64,000 bases of DNA from a virus: the IMG/VR virus record IMGVR_UViG_3300030000_000007, positions 5,432-69,431 of that record. The stretch is one strand, 5' to 3'. This document shows, piece by piece, positions 3,992-46,837 of this stretch. Below the pieces are notes generated by a model. The model was not told where the DNA came from, ran no database searches, and saw nothing but the letters and a program-made list of their open reading frames with translations. The number at the start of each line of letters is the position of its first letter. Position 1 is the first letter of the stretch. The position numbers and the translations under genes are program-made.

Positions 3992-4342
3992 TTAATATTC
4001 AGCGGGGCTATGTTGTTTAACATCATGCTCTACAACATATCTAAAGTCTGCTTCTTTTCTCCATTCTTTTGAAATATTTCTAGGAACAAATAGAGTGTGT
4101 ATTTCAAATACAAATCGAAAAAATAAACATATAATGTTTAAAAATACACAAATTATTGCTCCAAAAAAATCAAATATTGGAATTGTATCATCTTTTGAGA
4201 CACTTTTAAGTTGCCACACTAAATCATATGACCAAAAATGTTCTAACAAAACATATTGATACCGCAAATATAATGGTGTCCAAGCTCCAGTATAAGCATT
4301 CCAGAATGTAAATTTTGGTTTAAAAATATCACCTTCTTTCAT
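3992..4342 (-). CDS. hypothetical membrane protein
   Basis: 116-aa ORF with hydrophobic segment, overlaps ligase stop (ATGA). Confidence 0.6.
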   Translation of the reverse strand: MKEGDIFKPKFTFWNAYTGAWTPLYLRYQYVLLEHFWSYDLVWQLKSVSKDDTIPIFDFFGAIICVFLNIICLFFRFVFEIHTLFVPRNISKEWRKEADFRYVVEHDVKQHSPAEY

Positions 4343-5373: not shown

Positions 5374-5704
5374 TTTCGAATTCTTCTTTAGTGATGTGAA
5401 TCACAATATCATTCAATCCCATTAGACCATCATACTGGTGGGATTGATCAACATATTCAACAACCATTTCATCTTTAAGAGAGACTTCAATTAGGTCACC
5501 TCTAAATCCCCTAAACACTCTAAAGTCTAGAGTACCAACAGAAAATGTTTTTTCTAGATTTCGTTCTGTTGTGAAGTTGGAGTAATTTTTAGTTGTTGCT
5601 GTTGACCAATTATCAGCTATCAATCGTTGGACATGAGCAATGATTCGTTGATTGTTATTCTGTGTTTTTATCCTAGCAAAATATGTTTGAATGAAATTTT
5701 TCAT
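5348..5704 (-). CDS. hypothetical protein
   Basis: 118-aa ORF downstream of a TGATATAAT promoter. Confidence 0.6.
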   Translation of the reverse strand: MKNFIQTYFARIKTQNNNQRIIAHVQRLIADNWSTATTKNYSNFTTERNLEKTFSVGTLDFRVFRGFRGDLIEVSLKDEMVVEYVDQSHQYDGLMGLNDIVIHITKEEFENAIQTIIS

Positions 5705-15229: not shown

Positions 15230-15295
15230 TTTAATCTTTCTAAAAAGGTTTTGATAGATAAATTATAACATAAAAATCAGGTTATGTACATAAAA

Positions 15296-31012: not shown

Positions 31013-31678
31013 TTATATTCTTCCTCTTGAATATCCATTTAAAAGATATTCATCTAAATTTTCTTTTTTGATCTTGATAGGTTTTACACCATTAGTTACC
31101 CAACAAGTTCCAAACTGACTGTTCTTTTCACCATCATGAGGTCTTCTAGAAGATAATGTTTCTTTTCTTTTAATTTTAGATGAATTAGATAAAGCAGCAA
31201 TAGCAGCCTTCCTAGTTCCATTTAACATTTTCTCTCTATGATTAGCCCATAAATCTATATTATTCTTTGTACAACTAATGCTTAGAGCACGTTTTACTTT
31301 AATTTTAGTTTCATTTGACCATAAGTGTCTATTAGAAAACCCACCAATTTTGCCCAAGAAAGAACGCTGCTCTTTAGATAATTCACTCCATCCACCTTCA
31401 CCACCATATTTCAAATTGATGTTAAGTGGGTCTTTCAGTAAATCTTCATTTACTATATCTCTTTCTCTCTGCTTCAGTTCATCTCTTGATAAACATTTAT
31501 CGACAATTTCTCTCACGTGGTTCTCATCGCCATATTTTTTGCGTGAGTAACCCAAAATTTTCCCACTACCAAGATAACCATCTTCCAAGTTATCTGTTGA
31601 ATGCATACCTACATAAAATTTACCCGTAACTTTACAAGTTGTTTTGTAGATGAAATGGTACTTCTTTTGTTTTGACAT
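31013..31678 (-). mobile_element. GIY-YIG (Seg-like) free-standing homing endonuclease
   Basis: FIYKTT..FYVGMHST..YLGSG; late promoter; sits between two tRNA-Ser genes. Confidence 0.85.
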
Positions 31679-31817: not shown

Positions 31818-31951
31818 TTAAATTTAAAACAGCAAAAACGGAATTGGGAATTGCGTCCTGGCCCACCACGCGTAAAGGAATCGAACCTTCTAGGGTTTTT
31901 AAACCAAATAAAAGTAGATAACCAATTTACCAACGGCTGTTTTAAATTTAA
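31818..31951 (-). ncRNA. Y-RNA-like (YrlA-type) RNA
   Basis: 16-bp terminal stem ending CCG/UUG with a bulged C; T arm followed by acceptor- and D-like region. Confidence 0.65.
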
Positions 31952-32153: not shown

Positions 32154-32305
32154 ATATTCTAAATCAAGTGGATGATCTATGTAGGCAAAGAGTCGAACTT
32201 TACTGCCATCTACATAAAGAACGTTGAGTTTCTAGCTACCCATTGTTCCAACCGGCCGGTCTAATCACGTGTGAACGCTAATCCACAACACCACCTGAAA
32301 TTCTT

Positions 32306-32438
32306 AAACTTTAGATAACAAAAATGACATTGAGCATTTGCTCTCCGCAACCAGCTTAGCAGCGTGGGAATCGAACCCACAGAGTGTTTTAATAAGAGTA
32401 AAGTTAGATAATCAATAATCTCCGGTTATCTAAAGTTT
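32306..32438 (-). ncRNA. Y-RNA-like (YrlA-type) RNA
   Basis: AAACTTTAGATAAC-CG..TTTTTG-TTATCTAAAGTTT stem; T arm GTGGGTTCGATTCCCAC before a D-like arm. Confidence 0.65.
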
Positions 32439-32605
32439 AAAAATTCAAAAACAAATAGTTCTTTCAACTGCACATCCTGAGAAGAAATTTATCGACTTTG
32501 CCAGCAGTTTATTGAATTAAAGTAGTTGTCTCGGTTACTTACTACTAAGAACTATTTGTTTATTTATTAAAGTAATTATAATTTGTATGTTAAATAAAGT
32601 AAACT

Positions 32606-33231: not shown

Positions 33232-33262
33232 TTCAACTGTCCATCAAAATGATTATTTATAG

Positions 33263-33385
33263 TAGGGAAGGAAGGATTCGAACCTTCGACAGGCAGCTTG
33301 GATAATCATTTAAGCACGGTTATTAAAATAACAAAAATCCAAAAACGACGTTGATGCAACCGTTCTACCACTGAACTACTTCCCT
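33263..33385 (-). tRNA. tRNA-like RNA with an about 50-nt anticodon-loop insertion carrying the Y-like motif
   Basis: AGGGAAG/CTTCCCT acceptor; perfect D and T arms; insert TTTTTG-TTATT-TT-AATAA-CCG..GATTATC. Confidence 0.65.
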
Positions 33386-33792: not shown

Positions 33793-34350
33793 CTAATGCA
33801 ATCTTGAATGAGCCGGGATCGTCTTGGTTAAAAACTCAAGTTGATCTGCAAGGATATGTCTATTAGACAAAATCAAAGCTTCGCTCCTATTAGGAACATA
33901 CGGTACAAACAATAGCTGCATTCTTGCTTCTTCAAGTGTCATACAATCTTTGTGATTGTTACATTGCTTACAAGCAGAAATACAATTCATCCAGGTGTTT
34001 GCTCCACCCCTAGATTGTGGGATAATGTGATCTCGTGTAGCATCTTCACCTACCAAATGCTTTCCACAATATGCACAAGTGTTACGATCTCGACCGAACA
34101 AATTCTTATTTGTCAAAGGAACACTTCGGGTCTTTGTTCTTCCAAGGTTACGAATAGCAACAATAGAAGGAACTGAAACCGTTGATTCCAAACCTGTTAC
34201 ACGGGATGTTCCACCATGGTAAACGGTTTCGTCACCAAGAGACCATGCAATCAAATCTTTTACCTTGTAGACGACTCCTTCTTCCCATGTTGACCAACGC
34301 TGTGGGTGTCCGGCACTGTCTAACGTTAATACTAATGGGTACCTGTCCAT
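33793..34350 (-). CDS. HNH endonuclease (McrA-like)
   Basis: LFGRDRNTCAYCG..TRDHIIPQSRGG..WMNCISACKQCNNHK. Confidence 0.9.
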   Translation of the reverse strand: MDRYPLVLTLDSAGHPQRWSTWEEGVVYKVKDLIAWSLGDETVYHGGTSRVTGLESTVSVPSIVAIRNLGRTKTRSVPLTNKNLFGRDRNTCAYCGKHLVGEDATRDHIIPQSRGGANTWMNCISACKQCNNHKDCMTLEEARMQLLFVPYVPNRSEALILSNRHILADQLEFLTKTIPAHSRLH

Positions 34351-35378: not shown

Positions 35379-35493
35379 TGGTGGGGAGGGGTGGGCTCGA
35401 ACCACCGACATATGCATAACTACTGCTGCAACCATAGAGTCGACCTGTTTGTAGTCTCGTTTTCAATGCTCTAACCAACTGAGCTACCTCCCC
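35379..35493 (-). tRNA. tRNA-like RNA with expanded anticodon arm (about 40 nt extra)
   Basis: GGGGAGG/CCTCCCC-ACCA, canonical D and T arms, no definable anticodon. Confidence 0.65.
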
Positions 35494-36163: not shown

Positions 36164-36259
36164 TATCGACAGAGAAGGATTTGAACCTTCACATTGCGCC
36201 CATGTTTAGTGGGTGCTAAGTATACCTATTCCTCACGTTACGCAAACATCTATCAATAT
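36164..36259 (-). ncRNA. tRNA-like RNA without CCA
   Basis: ATATTGATAGA/TCTGTCGATAT stem, D-like arm, hairpin, GAAGGTTCAAATCCTTC T arm. Confidence 0.5.
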
Positions 36260-36265
36260 TGTTTG

Positions 36266-36336
36266 AGCGGGTACCCAGATTCGAACTGGGTTCTATAGCT
36301 TGGAAGGCTAGGGCACAACCCATATACCATACCCGC
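36266..36336 (-). tRNA. tRNA-Gly (TCC)
   Basis: GCGGGTA/TACCCGC-T; loop CT-TCC-AA. Confidence 0.85.
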
Positions 36337-36966
36337 TCAAACAACACTAACCTTTCTACCATTTAAATATCCATTCAAGAGATATTCATCTAAATTTTCT
36401 TTTTTGATCTTGATAGGTTTTACACCATCAGTTACCCAACAAGATCCATATTGAGAATTCTTTTCACCACTTCCAGCCAGACTCATCTTTTCTTTAGCTG
36501 CAACAGAATGATTTTTCCCCAACATTCCAAAGGTTGCTAAAGATCCGTTTTTCTGTCTTGTTGCAAAAGACTTTTTCCTAATTTCAGGATTGGCATTTAG
36601 TTTATTCATTGCTACTATTCCACCAACCTTACCGCCAGCCATTGCACATTTTTTCTGATGCTCGATATTGTTGAATCCACCACCTCCACCTGGAGCGATG
36701 TTCATACATTTAGTATCAGCTCTTAAATCTTCAGTGAGAATTTCCTTTTCTCTATCTTTCAGTGACTGTCTAGATGGTAAGAATTCCAGAATTTCTTTCG
36801 TATGAATATCTATTCCGTGTTTCTTAATTGACCTAGTTATTAATTTACCACTACCAAAATATCCATCTTCTAAATTATCTGTTGAATGCATTCCGATATA
36901 AAATCTACCATCATTTCTGGTAATTTTATACAAGTAATGGAATTTTCGTTGATCTGCTCTTTGCAT
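36337..36966 (-). mobile_element. GIY-YIG (Seg-like) homing endonuclease
   Basis: YLYKITR..FYIGMHST..YFGSG; NUMOD3-like GKNHS; abuts tRNA-Gly. Confidence 0.85.
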
Positions 36967-38272: not shown

Positions 38273-38329
38273 AAAGAACAAAAAGCATATTGGAATAATA
38301 CAGCCGATAACCCAATATAACGGTTCTTT
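38273..38329 (-). ncRNA. minimal Y-like motif RNA
   Basis: AAAGAAC-CG..GGGTTATC..CCAAT..TTTTTG-TTCTTT. Confidence 0.55.
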
Positions 38330-38339
38330 TTAAATTTTG

Positions 38340-38454
38340 TGGTGCTCCGACCCGGACTCGAACCGGGAAGCTTGCGCGGAAGATTTTTTTGAACACCCGC
38401 ATTAGCAGATGTTCCGTAAAAGTCTTCTGGGTTTACCAATTTCCCCACCGGAGC
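38340..38454 (-). tRNA. tRNA-Leu with an about 30-nt hairpin insertion in the anticodon loop
   Basis: GAAGA-CT[..GAACATCTGC-TAAT-GCGGGTGTTC..]AA-TCTTC; Leu-type body; ACCA. Confidence 0.75.
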
Positions 38455-38628
38455 ATTATCTTATATAAATTCACATAATAAACTTATATAAAATTATTTG
38501 TTATATTTATTATAACACATAAAGTTATCATATCAGAATTATTATTAGGCTTCCATCACCTAATGCGTTACTTAAGGTTTTATTTAAACAGGATGTACTT
38601 CACCTTTAAACCTGGAATGGATTATGCC

Positions 38629-38718
38629 TGGCGCAGTGTGGTGGATTCGAACCACCGATAGAGACCAACTTCTTGAAGGTTGGAAGAGCAAAACCTCAGC
38701 ACATTATACTTACACCGC
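38629..38718 (-). tRNA. irregular tRNA-like RNA, anticodon ambiguous (TCA or CAA)
   Basis: GCGGTGT/ACACTGC-GCCA; CCAAC-CTTCAAGAA-GTTGG. Confidence 0.5.
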
Positions 38719-39235
38719 AAAACTTTTATGTAGCAGGCTGCACACATTATCATTAAGATGCGCTTCGATATTTATCAACAGTTAAACTGTCCGCATCGCC
38801 GTTTACCTAGCTAATTGTTCTGTACTATTACGCACTGACTAACCACTGTTTCACTAGACTACAAAATTCATCACTTTGAAAACAGAGCAATACAAGTTAT
38901 CACAAGTAAGATCACCAAAAAGATAAAAATAACTGGGTTACAAGGTTGAGTTTTTTCATCTCGCTTTTTAAGCCAACCAGCATCTTCGAATGACATATCA
39001 AAACTCCTAGTTAAAAAATTCTTGCGCCCAAGTTTTCCACTCCTGGACGACTTTAGTAACCGCGGCTACACTTTTCACCCTCATTGACGTAAAGTAGTAT
39101 CTCGAAATGTTGTTAACCTCAAACATATAAACGGCTTCATGTAGGACAGTCAGCACAACCCACTAATTTTTAAGTGCTTCAGCATTCACTCCACATTCTA
39201 CTGTCGTGGCAGACCTGATTACAGGCTTTGGAAAC

Positions 39236-39414
39236 TGGCACCGTGAGAAGGAATTGAACCTCCATAATCTTCTTTAGATCGAAGTGCTTTTTAATTCAAA
39301 AACAACAAACTTAGTTTGCTGGGGTAGCTAATCCCACCTACTTTAAATCCGTACGATTGAGAATTGACAATCATTATTACGTAATTTGATTATCACCCAT
39401 TAAGCTATCACAGT
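39236..39414 (-). tRNA. tRNA-like RNA with an about 100-nt D-loop insertion
   Basis: ACTGTGA/TCACGGT-GCCA; GCTT..AAGC D stem split by the insert; 8-nt loop GATCTAAA. Confidence 0.6.
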
Positions 39415-39563
39415 ATAATCTTTTCGGAATGTAATTAGAAGTAAGGCTCAACTTTAACCTTCCACAGTGTCACGGTTACTACCCATTGTGACCCAGACTT
39501 AAGCAACAGTAGTTGAGCTTCTGTTACACACTTCTGATAACTGCTTGAATTACATACCAAATT

Positions 39564-39782
39564 TGGTGGGACATCCAGGGTTTGAACCTGTATCTTTTAT
39601 ATGTCTTTCGTACGTTCGGATTCCTGTTTAACCGAGGTGATACTTCTCTCGGATTTCGCTACACACGGTATCAATCGTGATGTGCTACTGCCCTATGCTC
39701 CGTACGGGTGTCATATAAACGGTTTTAGCCATCACAAACGATTCTTTCCTAAAGTTTGCAAATTCGTTTAACCTAAAGCCCC
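39564..39782 (-). ncRNA. about 220-nt RNA with tRNA-like acceptor, T arm and CCA (tmRNA-like ends)
   Basis: 5' GGGGCTT..CAGGTTCAAACCCTGGATGTCCC-ACCA 3'. Confidence 0.5.
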
Positions 39783-39922
39783 AAAAATCTTAGAGAGTAA
39801 GAGTACACGAGCATTACTGCTTTCGCTCTCTCAATACCATTTTATTTTTACCCTTAGTTCATCAATTGGGATTTTAATTGACTACACCTATGCAATTAGC
39901 TTCCGATAAGGTTGACCGTTTT

Positions 39923-39999
39923 TGGTGGGTATAGAGAGACTCGAACTCTCAGGATTTAGATTCTGAATCTAACGCGTCTACCGATTGCGCCATATACCC
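39923..39999 (-). tRNA. tRNA-Leu (CAG), short variable arm
   Basis: TTAGA-TTCAGAA-TCTAA; ACCA. Confidence 0.8.
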
Positions 40000-40107
40000 A
40001 TAACTGAATGGAACATACTTATCCTAAATAGAATTAACCTTTCGGCACAGTCCATCTTCGGCACACATTATATTCCCGAAAGTGTCTCAGTCTGTAATCT
40101 TTCGTTT

Positions 40108-40657
40108 ATCATTTTAAACAAATCTTCGCATTAGGACAAATTATGCTACTCTTACCCAGGGCTAGAATCGAACTAGCATTTAAGATCGGTTTAAAATGAT
40201 TCCCAATATCGTCACTAGGTATTGTCTTGGGTAATCATTTTAAAACATCTTAGGGAGTTGAACCCTCTCACGTATCTATGAATATATGCCACCTTGACAC
40301 CAAGAAGACTCTTGGCTAACCGAATCGAACGGCTTTAACCCTACGTTACGCTGCTACCACAACCCCTAGTCTTAGGGTTAAGATGTTTAAAAATGATTCC
40401 TAATATTGTCACCCGTTATTGTCTGTGCTTAGTTACCATAAAGGTTGATCACATCATATCGTCACGGACTATCTTTTCAGGGTTATCATTTTAAAATTCA
40501 CAAATCCTCTAGGACCAGCGTACCGTCTGTGTTAAACATAATCTAACCAGTATGTGAATTTTAAAATGAATTCTAATGTTATCATTTTAAAACATGCTTA
40601 CAAAGTCTTTCTCTTTGCTGGTCTCGACATCCCTGTGAAGTATGTTTTAAAATGATA
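40108..40657. repeat. array of four ATCATTTTAAA...TTTAAAATGAT stem-bracketed cassettes
   Basis: Units at 40108-40200, 40233-40398, 40485-40569, 40580-40657. Confidence 0.8.
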
Positions 40658-40852
40658 CCTTACACTGTGCCGAACCGGCAACCAGGAATCTCACGATTGA
40701 GGATAAACAATATCATCAATGTAAGGATCTAAACAGTATTAAGTTTTTCACTACTTGATATGGTAAGTGTTGTTTTACATGAACCAGACGAACTGGATAA
40801 CTTTCTTTTCCAAGAATTTCGCGGAATTTACGAAATACCGTTTTAGTTTAAC

Positions 40853-40940
40853 TTCTAAATTTTTAAGGAACTTACCAAATCAACTCGATCGTTAATTTGT
40901 TTGATAAGTAATTATACACTACTTTCTTCACATTGTACAT
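40853..40940 (-). promoter_or_regulatory. promoter plus boxB-like hairpin plus boxA-like leader (copy 2)
   Basis: 46-bp identity 40875-40920 = 46320-46365; followed by GTTCCTTAAAAATTTAG. Confidence 0.65.
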
Positions 40941-40957
40941 AAAATGTGAAAATATAT

Positions 40958-41144
40958 TTGGTACGACAGGATGGATTCGAACCACCGACCTATCAGTTAG
41001 AAACTGATTGCTCTCCCAAATTGATTATCTCTTAGCATTCAATCAGTCGCGTTCTGATCTATTTCTAATTCTTCATCGTTCTAGCCAGCAACTATTGATG
41101 TTGTTCCTACATCTCATGTGTGCTATCCACTGAGCTACTGCCGC
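40958..41144 (-). tRNA. tRNA-Arg (TCT) with an about 110-nt D-loop insertion
   Basis: GCTCAGTGGATAG[insert]AGAGC; ATCAG-TTTCTAA-CTGAT; canonical T arm; ACCA. Confidence 0.7.
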
Positions 41145-41155
41145 AAAAATCTAAC

Positions 41156-41335
41156 TGGCGCAGTGGGCAGGAATCGAACCTTGGCCTAATGTTTTCCATT
41201 GTTTCCTCCATAACCTCTTCCTAGGGCGGCTATCTTGTACGCAACTTCCGACATTATTTCGGACTTAACGCGCATGATCCTTTTGCGTAACCTACGTGAC
41301 CGAGACGAAGCCTCAATCCAGATCAATGACACTGC
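41156..41335 (-). ncRNA. 180-nt RNA with acceptor stem, T arm and GCCA
   Basis: GCAGTG/CACTGC-GCCA; AGGTTCGATTCCT. Confidence 0.5.
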
Positions 41336-41535
41336 ATAAACTAAAATCTTTGGTGCTGGTACAAATATCCAGCTTTCTCTCACTTTTTCTCTATTAAGTC
41401 GTTCGCTCCAGACCCAGGATTACCAACCTTTTGTGCGGAGAAGGTTTCTTGCTTACGTTGGCACTTATCGCTCAGAGAGATACAACCGGGGACGAACCCT
41501 AGTTAGTATGTTGGTGCATACATTTACCAAATAAC

Positions 41536-41661
41536 TGGTGTGTGAGGTAGGTCTCGAAGCCTACAATAGTACCATACTCTCAGTCGCTAAACTGATACTA
41601 GGATTTGAACCTAGATAACCTGGGTCCTGCCCAGGAGCGTCTACCGTTTCGCCACTCACAC
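41536..41661 (-). tRNA. Leu-type tRNA-like RNA with an extra T arm in the variable region
   Basis: GTGTGAG/CTCACAC-ACCA; CTAGGTTCAAATCCTAG plus GTAGGCTTCGAGACCTAC. Confidence 0.6.
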
Positions 41662-41749
41662 ATATAAAATAACACATTATTAAAAGCGTTCCAGCTTTAT
41701 CTGTCCGTCTAGCACTTGCACGAGCAGCGGTGCTTGCCATTCTGATGTG

Positions 41750-41965
41750 TCAAAATTGTTTAACTATAAAACTATCAGGAACTGTCAATAAATCATCTTC
41801 ACTTTCGAGATAATTTGCTTGAAAATGATTTCCACATTTTGTACATTTTTGTGCAAGAATACCAGGTAGACCTGTTGTGATTCGTTCAGTTTTGGTTACT
41901 TCACCACATACTGGACACCAATCATTTTCAAACATTCCAAAAGTCATTTTCCTAGTTATTTGCAT
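41750..41965 (-). CDS. small zinc-ribbon protein
   Basis: CPVC..CTKC; GGAGG SD. Confidence 0.7.
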   Translation of the reverse strand: MQITRKMTFGMFENDWCPVCGEVTKTERITTGLPGILAQKCTKCGNHFQANYLESEDDLLTVPDSFIVKQF

Positions 41966-42107
41966 TTAAACCTCCAAAATAAAATTTACATGGGCAAGAT
42001 TACGAGGAGTGGACCCTGCCCTTATAGTCGTCGTTCAAGCATTTTATCTCCACAACAACGCAAGACCCTTAGGCAACTATCGAGGCTCCCATGTAAAATT
42101 AACTTCT

Positions 42108-42601
42108 AATCATTTCAAAATGTGCGGCTCGATAGACACCGTTGTCCGTGTCTTAATCTTCCCATTGAGTGTTCACGCCCGATTTGAGCAGCCCAGAGTG
42201 ATCAACCTCTGTATAAACCTTCCAGTAACCGAGGGCATACGGCCAATACAACTAAAGCAGCACATTTTGAAATGATTGGTCAACCCTCCGTGTCTTTCGT
42301 TGCAACATACTTGACACAGCCTTTGAGAAACGTATTGAATAGTCATCAATGTATATCTCATCTTACCGTTGGTTATCTTAGTCTACTTTAAATCCTTATC
42401 GAAGGGATTATTTTTCAACTGCGACCATCATTTAAATCTCACTGGCTATCTTCGGGTCCTTGTACTTCGGCGTCCTTGCAAATAGCGGCTTACCCGTCAG
42501 TGAAATCATTTTAAAGTCGTTTAACATTCTCTCTTTGGCAAACATCGGTCAAGATATTCTAAGAATGGCTCTTTGCTCACATAAACAACTTTAAAATGAT
42601 T
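42108..42601. repeat. two further stem-bracketed cassettes
   Basis: 42108-42277 (AATCATTTCAAAATGTGC/GCACATTTTGAAATGATT) and 42504-42601. Confidence 0.75.
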
Positions 42602-42753
42602 GCGGCATATCGGTCGTTCCGCTGAGTATTAAAGATTGACTTTCATCAACCAGTTGTCCCCTGCCTTATGTTATTTCCCCGCTAAAGGAGTAACAGTCCG
42701 GATGACAACTCTCATGTACCAGGCTCGGTGTCCCAATACATTATAACCATTTT

Positions 42754-42979
42754 ATGGTTGGCTTGCTATTACGCTAAAAGGAATCTCGGCCTTACCAGTT
42801 ACGGGGTACCTTGATACTTTACCAAGTGGCTCACACGAGATTCACATACTAACCTGCCCACATGGCTGGGGTTCTGCTTTCAGTAACCTATAGATGCCCT
42901 TCAGATTACTTACAAACTCAATGTGCTATTGTCCTACTTATTAAGAGAATGGCTGCTTTTAAGCCTACTCACCTACCAT
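42754..42979 (-). ncRNA. RNA resembling the 23S rRNA GTPase-associated centre (H43/H44)
   Basis: GTAGGCTTAAAAGCAGCCAT (42949-42968) and GCGTAATAGC (42765-42774), closed by ATGGTAGG/CCAACCAT. Confidence 0.65.
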
Positions 42980-43067
42980 TGTTAAGTCGTTTAGTCGGGC
43001 TCTTCAATCTCGACGATACGGATATTTGCCATTCGGGGCTCACGTATACTAAACAACTTAAAAATGC

Positions 43068-43147
43068 GACCTCCGTGTAGGATGGACTCGAACCATCATC
43101 ACCACCCGACAAGGGTGGTGTCTTACCATTAGACCACTACTGAGGTC
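43068..43147 (-). ncRNA. tRNA-like RNA with extended acceptor stem, no CCA
   Basis: GACCTC/GAGGTC; D arm GTCT..AGAC; CCACC-CTTGTCG-GGTGG; T arm. Confidence 0.55.
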
Positions 43148-43183
43148 AACGGGTCATGACTCCCGTTCAATTCTGAAAGTTAA

Positions 43184-43714
43184 TTACTCTTTCAATATTG
43201 TACAATTTAGATGGTATCTAGTAAAGTTACCCTTACCTCTACCTTCTTTACCACAATTGGTACATTTCCAATACATTTTTGATGGAGCGTCATCTCCTTG
43301 AAAATTATGTGTACCATTAGTTATTCTATTATGTGTTAGGTTTGACTCACCAATAAAGTGATGAGTTCCTTTAGCTACACGAATGTTATTGTATGCTGTT
43401 TGCAATTCACTGCTTTGAAAATTGTGGGTTCCCATTGCTATTCGATGTGCATTAATTATTTTCCCATTTTTACTTGCAATTTTTCTTTTTTCTTCTGGTG
43501 AAATTTGCATTCTTTCAGACATTATTAAACATGCAGCCCAATCACATTGATTTAAATGGATCATAAAATGATCTTCAATGGGTATACATTGTAAATTTGA
43601 AATATCATTATTGTTGTGGTTTCCATCTTTATGATGTATCTCATATGATCTGCCACTTTTATCTTTTGGTATTGGACCGTATGCATCTGTATAAATTTTT
43701 CTATAACTAGCCAT
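43184..43714 (-). mobile_element. HNH homing endonuclease
   Basis: YEIHHKDGNHNNNDISNL..H..H; GTHNF repeats; late promoter. Confidence 0.8.
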
Positions 43715-43991
43715 GCTTGCATTCCTATAAACATTAAAATAGTCGATCGACTATATCTGTATTTATAGTGTTTAATGGTTAATTACTCCAACCGATTCCA
43801 TTTTAAAGCACACTACATTGCGTCTCTTCCCAGGGCTAACTGCCCGATGGGTTCGGAACCTAACCGAATATTGTGCTTTGAAATAGACACAGTGTAGGCT
43901 TCATCTACTCTAGCCGCTGTCAGTCATCGGCATCCCAGTTTCCGCTGGTTCGTTTATGCAGGGTCCAGGTTGCTTAGGACTTAGTTTACTC

Positions 43992-44091
43992 TGGTGTAGA
44001 AATTGGGATTCGAACCCAACTAATCCGGCATTTTTACAATGGGTGATATCACTTCCCACCGCTGTATGCCCATCGGATAATTACTTCCTAC
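43992..44091 (-). ncRNA. tRNA-like RNA lacking a D arm, CCA-ended
   Basis: GTAGGAA/TTTCTAC-ACCA; TTGGGTTCGAATCCCAA. Confidence 0.5.
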
Positions 44092-44134
44092 TCACATACA
44101 GGCTCGAACTTGTCCCTAGACTAACCACTTATTC

Positions 44135-44209
44135 TGGTGCGGGTGGCGGGAATCAAACCCGCTCGTACTGGGTGGAAGCCAGTCATGCGATCATTAACAT
44201 CTCACACGC
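44135..44209 (-). tRNA. tRNA-Gly (TCC), divergent
   Basis: ACTGG-CTTCCAC-CCAGT; ACCA. Confidence 0.7.
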
Positions 44210-44566
44210 TTAAATTCTTCCATGATTTTCTCAAGCACCCGGATTATATTCAATTAATTCTATCCAACATGGAGTGTGCTATACATATTAATTTATACCC
44301 CTTAAACTTTTTCCGAATTTAAGAGGATTTTAAGAAATAAATTTCTCTTCTGTTTCCTTTTGGTGGATTCCAGCCCTTAAGTTTTTAATAATCACTAAAC
44401 TTAGTTAAACGAGAGCCTTGAAATAAATCTTATTACGACGTCTTTATAGATGACTGTTACCTAGGCTATAGTCGGGTATTAGGTGTGTTCTCACCGTTAC
44501 TGTTTCATTTGTAACTTCGTCATGATTCACATGATTTGTTGGAATTCACCAACATTGGAAAAAAAC

Positions 44567-44652
44567 TGGTGGATGCGGTTGGAGTCGAACCAACAATGCC
44601 GTGAGGCGGAGGATTTACAATCCTCTGGGGTTACCAATTTTCCTACACATCC
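44567..44652 (-). tRNA. tRNA-Tyr (GTA)
   Basis: GAGGA-TTGTAAA-TCCTC, long variable arm, ACCA. Confidence 0.9.
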
Positions 44653-44734
44653 AAAATTTAACGAAGCGGATTCTCACCTACTACGATCTGTACATTTAAG
44701 TACCTTCATGTTTCACCCAACATGTAAGACTGAC

Positions 44735-45400
44735 TCATCTTTTTATCCCTCTAACCCAATCATCATTCAGATAGTGATTTAATTTTTCTAGAGGAATTCT
44801 TTTAACTTCTCCAAGCTTGGATATCCAAGCAAGTTTTTTACCAAACATAGGATTTTTATCCCCATTTCTATCAACAGCATTCTGACTAATTTTCATCTGT
44901 ATCAATGTGCTGTCTGAGTGTTTGTGATCTTTTCTCCATGGATTAATAGCATTTTTAAATACATACATTTTGCCTTCAAGATGCATCTGTTGTGCTCGTT
45001 CACTTAAAAGCTTAGTGTGTTTAGCCTTATATTCAGGATTTTTTCGTTTCTGTTTCAATGATTGAATTGCTGCTTCAGCACATTTCTTTTGATGCTCTTC
45101 ATTTTTGAAGCCACCACCTCCACCTGGAGCAATGTTCATACATTTAGTATCTGCTCTCATTTCGTCAGTGATAAGTAATTTTTCTTTATCCTTTGATGCT
45201 TGACGTGTGTCAAAGAACTCTAAAATCTCTTTAGAGTGTTTTTCTTTACCATGTCTATTCAAAGACTTCCAAAGATAAGTACCACTCCCAAAATATCCAT
45301 CCTCTAAATTATCAGTAGAATGAATACCAAAATAATACTTCCCATCAAATCTTGTAATTTTATACAAGTAATGGAATTTTCGTTGATCTGCTCTTTGCAT
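44735..45400 (-). mobile_element. GIY-YIG (Seg-like) homing endonuclease
   Basis: YLYKITR..YYFGIHST..YFGSG; NPMFGKK; late promoter. Confidence 0.85.
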
Positions 45401-45439
45401 AATAATCTCCTTTGAGATTATTTATAGCAAATCTAATCC

Positions 45440-45524
45440 TGGTGAGGGCAGATGGTAACGATCCATCAGAGCTTAAAGCGCCGGGGTTACAGTCCGGACC
45501 GTCTCCTTAACGGTATATACCCCC
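45440..45524 (-). tRNA. tRNA-Tyr (GTA), irregular T loop
   Basis: CCGGA-CTGTAAC-CCCGG; ACCA. Confidence 0.7.
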
Positions 45525-45593
45525 TAAATTCGATTAACATAAAAACCTAAACGGTAACTTAGTTAAAGTTTACAAAAGCTGTAAAGTTATTAC

Positions 45594-45677
45594 TGGTGGA
45601 AACGGTTGGATTCGAACCAACGTGCGATTAAGAACGGTTTTACAGACCGTCGGTTTCAGCCACTCACCCACATTTCC
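45594..45677 (-). tRNA. tRNA-Tyr (GTA)
   Basis: ACGGT-CTGTAAA-ACCGT; ACCA. Confidence 0.9.
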
Positions 45678-45771
45678 ATATTTAATCTTCCTACCCAAAC
45701 AGAATTAGTCGCTGAGGGAAGCAACGCATTCGAACTGCTCTGTTTTGTGCCTCAAGTAAGGAGATTGAATA

Positions 45772-45846
45772 TGGTGCCTAGTCACGGTTTCGAACCGCGG
45801 ACCCATTCCTTGTAAGGGAATTGCTCTACCCCTGAGCTAACCAGGC
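45772..45846 (-). tRNA. tRNA-Val (TAC)
   Basis: ATTCC-CTTACAA-GGAAT; ACCA. Confidence 0.9.
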
Positions 45847-46300
45847 AAAAGTCGTGCAATTTATTTCAAATATCTGGAATACTGAAGTGGTTTTTGACTC
45901 CACTTGGTTCTAACAAATATCCAATTAGCTGCACGGCTAATTGAAACTTCTAAATTTTTAAAGAACTAATTTGTTTGACTCTATCGGCCCTCTTTGCTCC
46001 GGTTTCCCAGCTACATCTTCCCTACTTTCGTAGTTACTCCGATTATGTTCCCAATCCCTAACTTCCGCTTTGAGCTCTAAGGGAACATTTTGTCAAACAA
46101 TTTTGATTGTGTCTTGAACTTTGCTGATTTCATGCCCATATTTCACTTTCGCTCCATGGAACCCAGAGATTCCACTTCAACGCTCTGGACTATCCTACGA
46201 ATCCACCAACTTTTCTAATACTTCATGACCCATATAGTAACATGTCTTTTGTCCCGAGGACTAAGGCACAAACGTAATCATTTTTCTCAGTAAGATCATT

Positions 46301-46385
46301 AACAATTTTAAAGAACCTTCCAAATCAACTCGATCGTTAATTTGTTTGATAAGTAATTATACACTGCTTTTTGTGCTTTGTACAT
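46301..46385 (-). promoter_or_regulatory. promoter plus boxB-like hairpin plus boxA-like leader (copy 1)
   Basis: TGTACA..TGTATAAT; CAAATTAAC-GATCGA-GTTGATTTG; GTTCTTTAAAATT. Confidence 0.65.
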
Positions 46386-46426
46386 CATTTTTGAAAATAA
46401 ACTAAAACTAATTTGCTTTCAAAAAC

Positions 46427-46600
46427 AAAAAAGGGAACCTTAAGGTTCCCTGAGATTTAAAGTGTAGAAACTTTTAACTCAGGGTCATAAAGCCAAGCCC
46501 CGCTACTAATCCTCTTGAATAGAGACTTAGAGATGAATAATATGAGTATGAGTTCATTTTCTTTTAGAAAAGGTTAAATTAATAAGATGTTTTATTTATA
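46427..46600 (-). promoter_or_regulatory. late promoter, Ser/Tyr-rich leader peptide (46474..46557) and attenuator
   Basis: TATAAATA; MNSYSYYSSLSLYSRGLVAGLGFMTLS*; CCCUGAG..CUCAGGG stem overlaps the GGGAACC-UUAA-GGUUCCC-U6 terminator. Confidence 0.7.
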
Positions 46601-46627
46601 GGATAACCGGAGAATGTTGGAATCTGA

Positions 46628-46837
46628 TCACTCTTCAACTTTAATTAATTGACTTGGGCTTTGAAGAAATTGCTTAACGAGTCCTGGATGACCATGGTTC
46701 CAGGTGTTGTAATATTCTACACGCACCTGCATAGGGGTGAATGCATAAATTATTGCCTTCACCAAATGTCTATAATTCGGTGCAATTAAAACAACAGTGT
46801 CACCAATGTTGAGTTCTTTACCCAAAAAATCTTTCAT
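46628..46837 (-). CDS. hypothetical phage protein
   Basis: MKDFLGKELNIGDTVV motif. Confidence 0.7.
   Translation of the reverse strand: MKDFLGKELNIGDTVVLIAPNYRHLVKAIIYAFTPMQVRVEYYNTWNHGHPGLVKQFLQSPSQLIKVEE

Follow-up and report, generated by a model that had tools for sequence, protein, structure and literature searches.

The stretch of DNA considered here, a window of 64,000 nucleotides (positions 5,432 to 69,431) from the IMG/VR virus record IMGVR_UViG_3300030000_000007, carries a phage tRNA array in which small cassettes with unrelated contents are each closed by the same inverted repeat. The window makes up most of the 69,431-base record, for which CheckV gives a completeness of 29%; by simple arithmetic, this corresponds to a genome of about 240 kb. 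ARAGORN called 23 tRNA genes, or 27 when inserts were allowed, all of them on the minus strand between about 25.8 and 46 kb of the window. Long stretches free of open reading frames (ORFs) separate these genes, and the constant-stem units occupy the densest such stretch. No ORF of 50 amino acids (aa) or more is found in 39772-41185, that is, none lies between or within the first four units (U1 to U4). The units and the two linkers that share a motif are listed below.

40108..40200, minus: U1, 19-position helix (12 pairs, a mismatch, a G-U, and 5 pairs), 55-nt interior with a T-arm-like hairpin near the 5' side
40201..40232, minus: U2/U1 linker, holds the first linker-motif copy, alternative-register pairing with the adjacent arms possible
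40233..40398, minus: U2, 20-position helix with one U-U mismatch, 126-nt interior with a tRNA-like skeleton
40399..40484, minus: U3/U2 linker, second copy of the linker motif
40485..40570, minus: U3, 17 perfect pairs, 50-nt interior
40580..40657, minus: U4, 20-position helix with one A-C, 38-nt interior
42108..42277, minus: U5, 22-position helix, 126-nt interior, handle variant ATCATTTCAAA/TTTGAAATGAT
42504..42601, minus: U6, 20 pairs including one G-U on the minus strand, 58-nt interior
42977..43066, minus: U7, divergent, 19-position helix with one mismatch and one G-U, inner stem like that of U6
43799..43885, minus: U9, degenerate, helix of 14-17 positions, handle without CAU

Structure of the units

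The 11-mer ATCATTTTAAA, with at most one mismatch, occurs 19 times in the window, compared with 8.06 ± 3.27 times in shuffled sequences, and none of 100 shuffles reached 19. Twelve of these occurrences fall in 40108-42600, where they pair as six inverted-repeat units (U1 to U6). The arms of the six units are 17-22 nt long and 89-100% complementary, and they carry exact or near-exact copies of ATCATTTTAAA/TTTAAAATGAT. Counted from the outside inward, the helices of U1 to U6 span 19, 20, 17-20, 20, 22, and 20 positions. Each is made up of a constant part of 11-12 bp (the handle) and 6-9 unit-specific pairs, after which pairing stops abruptly. Measured by eye, the helices of all eight units in the window are 17-22 positions long, and 12-22 by the rule used for the larger set of 44 units described below. 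The two remaining units, U7 and U9, are genuine but weaker and degenerate members. U7 begins 5 nt after a tRNA-Thr gene (43072-43144) and, judged by its stem, is a paralogue of U6, with which it has a 17-nt arm match in blastn. Since each unit extends the handle with complementary pairs of its own, and since U5 has altered both arms of its handle together with the pairing preserved, the pairing itself, and not merely the sequence, appears to be under selection.

After removal of the whole helix, the interiors are 38-126 nt long. Apart from the arms, including the U6/U7 match, blastn among the units detected a single shared 10-nt word, GCCCUGGG(U)AAGAG, in the interiors of U1 and U9. T-loop hairpins (a 4-bp stem and a UUCRANY loop) are present in U1 and U2 only, i.e., in two of the eight interiors of the window and in 4 of 32 across all phages examined. 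In U1, a perfect T-arm is followed by a D-like hairpin. The skeleton of U2 consists of a 7-bp inner stem, a D-arm-like hairpin, and two T-arm-like hairpins, one internal and the other immediately preceding the 3' arm; two units of the related record G007 have the same minihelix layout, with a T-arm directly before the 3' arm. These two interiors of the window look tRNA-like. The linker motif AATATYGTCACNNNNTATTGTCT has two copies, at 40205-40227 and 40402-40424 (0.16 expected), and the alternative register of the U2/U1 linker forms a 19-pair hairpin. A scan for the linker pattern as a motif returned no matches. A sequence-only reading of this DNA had described at least eight units with a shared outer inverted repeat, a private inner extension, unrelated cargo, some T-loops, and linkers that can pair in another register. 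All of this was borne out, with six units exact or near-exact and two degenerate, T-loops confined to two units, and the alternative register computed for the U2/U1 linker.

The handle in related phages

A neighbouring protein led to related records of 102-353 kb. The arrays of G001 and of the records reached through a conserved neighbouring RNA (I9, below) are rich in similar units, in which perfect or near-perfect stems of 18-24 bp enclose 23-133 nt. When closing stems were aligned on the CAU near their outer end, 21 of 31 stems in seven arrays fitted (U)A-Y-C-A-U-W-U-U-W-A-A-R followed by unit-specific sequence, and the handle of the window, AUCAUUUUAAA, is one variant of this stem. At each position from +3 to +8 past the C of CAU, 16-21 of the 21 aligned arms have A or U. 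The conserved outer part is a tract of 6-8 bp containing only A and U, set between a C-G and an R-Y pair. Helix length is also narrowly distributed, with 18-22 positions in 30 of 44 units from eight arrays and a median of 19. Conservation of the handle extends to phages in which the neighbouring protein has 62-68% identity.

The sequence-only reading had suggested that cassette content be compared between relatives, and in this comparison the stem is kept and the interior changes. The handle and inner stem of U4 recur in G007 (L163:15682-15798; 21 nt, 95%) around a 77-nt interior that cannot be aligned, and in G010 (L165:13132-13213) around a 43-nt interior with partial similarity. On this evidence, the handle survives a change of interior between phages. 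The relative G001 (353 kb, 99% complete) has several small-RNA pieces in common with the window. The arrays are heavily rearranged and not collinear between related phages. By analogy with segB of T4, the homing endonuclease genes among the RNAs could drive this mosaicism.

True tRNAs also lie inside such stems, at 36259-36344 in the window (tRNA-Gly) and at L031:4962-5057, L032:269-364, 375-473, and 4198-4302, L034:8207-8320, and L163:13385-13484 in related phages (tRNA-Asn in L031, L032, L034, and G007; tRNA-His in L032). Here, the acceptor stem is lengthened by 8-14 leader/trailer pairs to give stems of 15-21 bp, and the extension of tRNA-Asn (..CUUUGC) is similar in three phages. One stem-closed RNA of the window, next to U5, has a conserved interior.

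41977..42105, minus: I9, stem-closed RNA of about 129 nt, 2 nt from U5

A search with I9 led to five further records. Its interior is 80-92% conserved in six other phage records (L157-L162), its closing stem covaries (e.g., CAUGGG/CCCAUG versus UAUGAG/CUCAUA), and it has no match in Rfam.

Other searches did not extend the family. The relatives of a 363-aa neighbouring protein comprise seven loci, none with the motif and with one tRNA only within 10 kb, and a 71-aa ORF has no relatives. A motif scan of IMG/VR gave four loci, which lack tRNAs, do not resemble the window, and have an inner extension of 0-1. The same scan of metagenome contigs gave at least 119 loci; among the matches listed, none is similar to the window, no tRNAs were present where this was checked, and most have no inner extension. 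Also among the matches listed, twelve contigs of one sample (L048, L050, L059, L067, L068, L071, L076, L081, L086, L092, L098, and L113) carry an unrelated palindromic repeat of about 100 bp that ends in the same 11-mer and is probably a miniature mobile element of another organism.

Strand and transcription

In U1, U6, and U7, a G-U pair is found on the minus strand where the plus strand has A-C, and the reverse is true of U4. For a broader count, 44 stem-closed units were gathered from eight arrays (the window, G001, G007, G008, G010, L031, L032, and L034). Their helices contain 750 Watson-Crick pairs; of the remaining pairs, 19 read as G-U on the tRNA-sense strand, 4 as A-C (G-U on the opposite strand), and 16 are mismatches of other kinds. 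By our own arithmetic, 19 versus 4 corresponds to about 0.003 in a two-sided sign test, for events that are not all independent, as the 44 units include orthologues. The G-U bias, the orientation shared with all tRNAs, and the T-loops on the same strand together point to the constant-stem units acting as RNA of the minus (tRNA) strand.

The window has three copies of the sigma-70-type promoter word TGTACA-N17-TATAAT where 0.09 would be expected, and all three lie on the minus strand. Two of the copies also share the spacer end AAAG-N-AGTG, and one of these two stands directly before a stem-closed unit with a different stem.

40911..40939, minus: promoter word, directly upstream (in the RNA sense) of 40753-40885 and U4-U1
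40753..40885, minus: further stem-closed unit with a different stem, 16 positions, interior of about 100 nt, first in the predicted U4-U1 transcript
46356-46384, minus: near-twin promoter word, at the head of the whole array
15262-15290, minus: third promoter word

The units U4 to U1 are probably transcribed from the promoter at 40939-40911, as judged from its position and strand.

A probable processing stem in a proposed tRNA and small-RNA operon

We favour, with moderate confidence, a reading in which the constant stem is an RNase III-type processing and end-protecting stem in a polycistronic operon of tRNAs and small RNAs. The cassettes would be made as part of a long minus-strand transcript, in which the closing helix would act as a double-strand-specific signal for processing and end protection. 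A host enzyme would cut both strands within the constant part, which is nearly free of G-C pairs. Cleavage would separate neighbouring units and turn each interior into a small RNA that ends in a duplex of about 11 bp, which would shield both RNA ends. The pairing, the strand, the narrow range of helix length, the conservation of the handle across phages, and the like stems around tRNAs were all computed directly; transcription, cleavage, the enzyme, and the release of the interiors we infer from them.

E. coli RNase III typically acts on substrates of two helical turns and needs the helix to run on for 11 bp or more beyond the cut (PMC1540722), and the helices of the window, at 17-22 positions by eye, have these dimensions. 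In addition, the purine 2-amino group of G-C pairs in the proximal box interferes with binding by the enzyme or with catalysis (PMC1540722), and therefore the constant part should permit a cut and the private part, which contains G-C pairs, should not. The A/U tract of the handle is where a cut 11 bp or more away from the interior would be placed. For the wrapped tRNAs, excision from a precursor is the only sensible purpose of the stem. The tRNA-Gly, tRNA-Asn, and tRNA-His genes are stable RNAs bracketed by like stems, and their strand and the promoter word suggest a polycistronic transcript. The window itself holds several units of one tRNA array with one common closing stem, unrelated interiors, and a stem that recurs in other phages. 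The common processing or loading handle offered by the sequence-only reading fits the helix length of about two turns, the strand bias of G-U pairs, the conservation across phages, and the stems on tRNAs, with RNase III as the candidate enzyme; the recombination sites that it offered as an alternative found no support as sites of site-specific recombination, as discussed below.

Several observations weigh against a processing stem. In the minimum-energy fold of the 576-nt U4-U1 stretch, U3 and U1 alone form their own stems, and the arms of U4 pair with those of U2; local closure would therefore depend on folding during transcription. The generic scan for promoters and terminators did not rise above shuffled sequences (28 versus 24.5 ± 5.4), and the 19:4 count carries the non-independence noted above. 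Among the sequencing runs listed as containing the phage, none is recorded as RNA, which leaves transcription, RNA ends, and cleavage as predictions. RNase III mostly reads the shape of a helix and does not require a conserved sequence, so that the conservation of the handle may mean another, sequence-specific partner. The folded T7 R1.1 site shows no obvious likeness to the handle in a comparison of folds. Finally, none of five phage records yielded an RNase III gene, and a host enzyme must be assumed.

Other explanations

The alternative that survives best holds that the stem alone matters, as operon punctuation or an insulator, and that the interiors are unconstrained filler, partly decayed tRNA genes. 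We regard it as possible, if somewhat doubtful. Stripped of the helix, the minus-strand interiors are no more stable than dinucleotide-shuffled sequences, with z between -1.31 and +0.72 and a mean of -0.5. Paralogous interiors cannot be aligned, orthologous stems enclose different interiors, and a search of 21 related loci (318,938 bases) yielded no homologue of any interior. The T-arm-like hairpins of U1 and U2 could be remnants of tRNA genes, and the Rfam tRNA model matched no unit at E ≤10. ARAGORN likewise called none of the units a tRNA or tmRNA, also when introns were permitted. However, these T-arm hairpins are intact. The interiors have a G+C content of 40-53% compared with 37% for the window, and are therefore not drifting toward the composition of the genome. 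The conservation of the I9 interior further implies that some interiors of this class are under selection. The pentamer AAGAG is present in six of the eight interiors of the window, and a 5-mer was shared so widely in 12 of 2000 shuffles; this was not replicated in the interiors of other phages (0 of 24), and it was left unused as evidence.

Searches for a function of the interiors were also negative. No antisense target of 14 nt or more was found for them in the window, where the longest complement is 13 nt, about the chance level. No unit matched the E. coli rrnH operon in blastn-short. At the Rfam gathering score only tRNAs were found, and at E ≤10 over 38300-46700 the only unit matches were weak miRNA-type hairpins on U3 and U4, far below the thresholds. 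Public phage records gave a single 82-nt tRNA-like match, and a distant-mode search of E. coli genomes gave none. The sequence-only reading's idea of a library of small RNAs (decoys, antitoxin mimics, or guides) is rather weakened, because the interiors are no more stable than shuffles, have no antisense (in the window) or rRNA-like matches above chance, and lack homologues in the related loci searched. The best rRNA match of the region lies outside the units, at 42938-42968 against 23S rRNA 1059-1089 (31 nt, 77%, 28.4 bits), and is within the range of 20 shuffles (22.1-31.6).

It is unlikely, in our view, that the stem is instead a loading handle for a sequence-specific RNA-binding protein of phage or host, which would present the interiors as ribonucleoproteins in the manner of Ro60 and Y RNAs, with or without cleavage. 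Such a protein would account for the conservation of handle sequence, beyond shape, across phages. The order of elements in U1 (stem, T-arm, D-like hairpin, stem) recalls that of YrlA, and a T-arm directly before the 3' arm is shared by U2 and the two G007 units. However, the TROVE/Ro60 domain (PF05731) was found in none of three records, namely G000 (29% complete), G001 (99%), and G002, in a search whose control matched 2 of 14 genomes. The YrlA motif GNCGAAN0-1G is absent from all eight units, and no Rfam family covers the units beyond the miRNA-type matches mentioned above. The ORFs of the array encode homing endonucleases or small proteins without a family, and none was identified as a candidate partner gene.

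A broader proposal, to which we give little credence, treats the constant stem as a phage-wide modular wrapper read by a dedicated factor. It would serve to express, stabilise, and rapidly swap fast-evolving small RNAs, tRNA mimics included, as decoys or antidotes against host defences that target RNA, with homing endonucleases moving cassettes between co-infecting phages.

The inverted repeats could also act in DNA, as hairpin or cruciform recombination sites of the attC kind or as short repeats that shuffle cassettes as PeSLs do; this we consider very improbable. The attC sites have conserved outer inverted cores, a unit-specific paired middle, and a variable centre, and the layout of the units resembles them. 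The rearrangement of related arrays, the different interiors under the same stem, and the homing endonuclease genes in the array would also suit DNA exchange. Against this, neither a tyrosine recombinase (PF00589) nor a Y1 transposase (PF01797) was found in any of five records, the 99% complete G001 included. With no ORF of 50 aa or more in or between U1 to U4, there are no gene cassettes to exchange. The G-U pairs favour the transcribed strand by 19 to 4, and for the tRNAs inside like stems the acceptor stem makes up the inner part. Four DNA runs (X2, X4, X6, and X7) gave contigs that are almost identical to the window and in which no arm has a joint; the strain is essentially the same in all four, and their uncovered parts were left uninterpreted. 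The low-depth contig of X7 differs from the window at 40136 and 40156, in the interior of U1, and at 40030, outside it, where the other three runs are identical.

Miniature transposable elements can be set aside: the 11-bp terminal inverted repeats and, among the metagenome matches listed, the unrelated repeat family with identical 11-mer ends (12 contigs of one sample) recall them, but the copies share no interior, which excludes this reading, the repeat extends inward by unit-specific pairs, the U5 arms are complementary and not direct repeats, so that there is no target-site duplication, and all copies lie within one RNA operon on one strand.

Other features of the window

The phage looks like a large phage of the T4 type, judging from the T4 late-promoter words, the homing endonucleases in the RNA region, the NAMPT and NMNAT/Nudix genes near that region, and its large relatives. 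The late-promoter word TATAAATA has 18 copies in the window, all 18 on the minus strand, with 6.2 expected on both strands. Genes of the homing-endonuclease type (PHROG 314 / Seg-like GIY-YIG, HNH) lie inside the RNA array at 44735-45400, 31013-31678, 36337-36966, 33793-34350, and 43184-43714. Homologues of the endonuclease at 44735-45400 are also found within the tRNA arrays of four other phage contigs.

Four tRNA genes (33262-33385, 35379-35493, 38340-38454, and 40959-41144) have inserts of 24-109 nt in or near the anticodon arm. ARAGORN called them solely with introns allowed, and the inserts are too short for group I introns. In the Rfam alignment of 38343-38454, a 33-nt insert follows position 37. 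By eye, a tRNA-like gene can be recognised at 41160-41345 (minus strand); its CCA end is encoded, its T-arm is good, and its insert exceeds 100 nt, and it was called by neither ARAGORN nor Rfam. A full-length RtcB RNA ligase gene is present only in the related record G002 (C1:161459-162586, L030; E 3.7e-129) and absent from the 99% complete G001.

Three more stem-closed units have other stems, of 15-16 perfect pairs (31818-31951, 32304-32440, and 32449-32561). Two of the three have a central T-arm, and a doubtful tRNA-Pro was called by ARAGORN inside 31818-31951.

Significance and comparison with known systems

Large phages spend kilobases on tRNA arrays, and most of the sequence between the tRNA genes has no annotation. 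If the constant stem is indeed a processing stem, one reusable element around tRNAs, their look-alikes, and unrelated small RNAs would account for the way such operons are divided into stable pieces. The same element would provide a simple rule to find phage small RNAs in metagenomes and a natural design for the expression of stable small RNAs. If the interiors are functional and fast-evolving, they would be candidates for counter-defence at the RNA level. The literature searched gave no description of phage tRNA arrays in which a constant stem closes small RNAs of variable content; the supplementary lists of PMC10690425 (candidate structured RNAs) and PMC4201824 (phage YrlA), which were outside the search, could hold relatives.

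The closest known counterparts are RNase III stems. The leader-trailer helices of 16S and 23S rRNA and the T7 R1.1 site (PMC10250234; PMC1540722) are likewise helices of about two turns that flank RNA excised from a polycistronic transcript. They are poor in G-C pairs at the site of cleavage, as the units would be at the predicted one, and they flank tRNAs and other stable RNAs. Unlike these stems, the units described here reuse one constant sequence around many unrelated small interiors and keep it across phages, with cleavage as a prediction. T7 R1.1, as we folded it, has an internal loop and a small capped upper stem, whereas the units of the window have a large interior.

In YrlA Y RNAs, the 5' and 3' ends pair into a protein-binding stem, and the variable module can be a permuted tRNA-like domain with a T-arm, an acceptor-like stem-loop, and a D-arm (PMC4201824). 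The ends of the window's units also pair, and U1 has a T-arm followed by a D-like hairpin. In contrast to what is described there, none of the units has the YrlA motif, no TROVE gene accompanies them in the three records, and six of the eight interiors have no T-arm. PeSLs of T4-type phages are direct repeats with a small GC-rich stem-loop and an early promoter that flank ORFs (PMC4122927). The likeness lies in the reuse of a short conserved repeat in plastic regions of T4-type phages, with variable content between copies (PMC4122927 and PMC2839356). In every defining feature, however, the units differ from PeSLs: their repeats are inverted copies that pair with each other, and no ORF is flanked by them.

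T4 itself offers a further parallel. Its species 1 (rnaC, 139 nt) and species 2 (rnaD, 119 nt) RNAs (AF158101) are small stable non-tRNA RNAs annotated in a tRNA cluster, on the tRNA strand and beside a Seg gene, as are the units of the window. Unlike the units, neither has a 20-bp AU-rich closing stem or a shared handle. Like U2, rnaC is tRNA-like and combines a 3' T-arm with end-to-end pairing. If the interiors of the constant-stem units are functional, this would bear on a question that is now fifty years old, namely the purpose of the species 1 and species 2 RNAs of T4.

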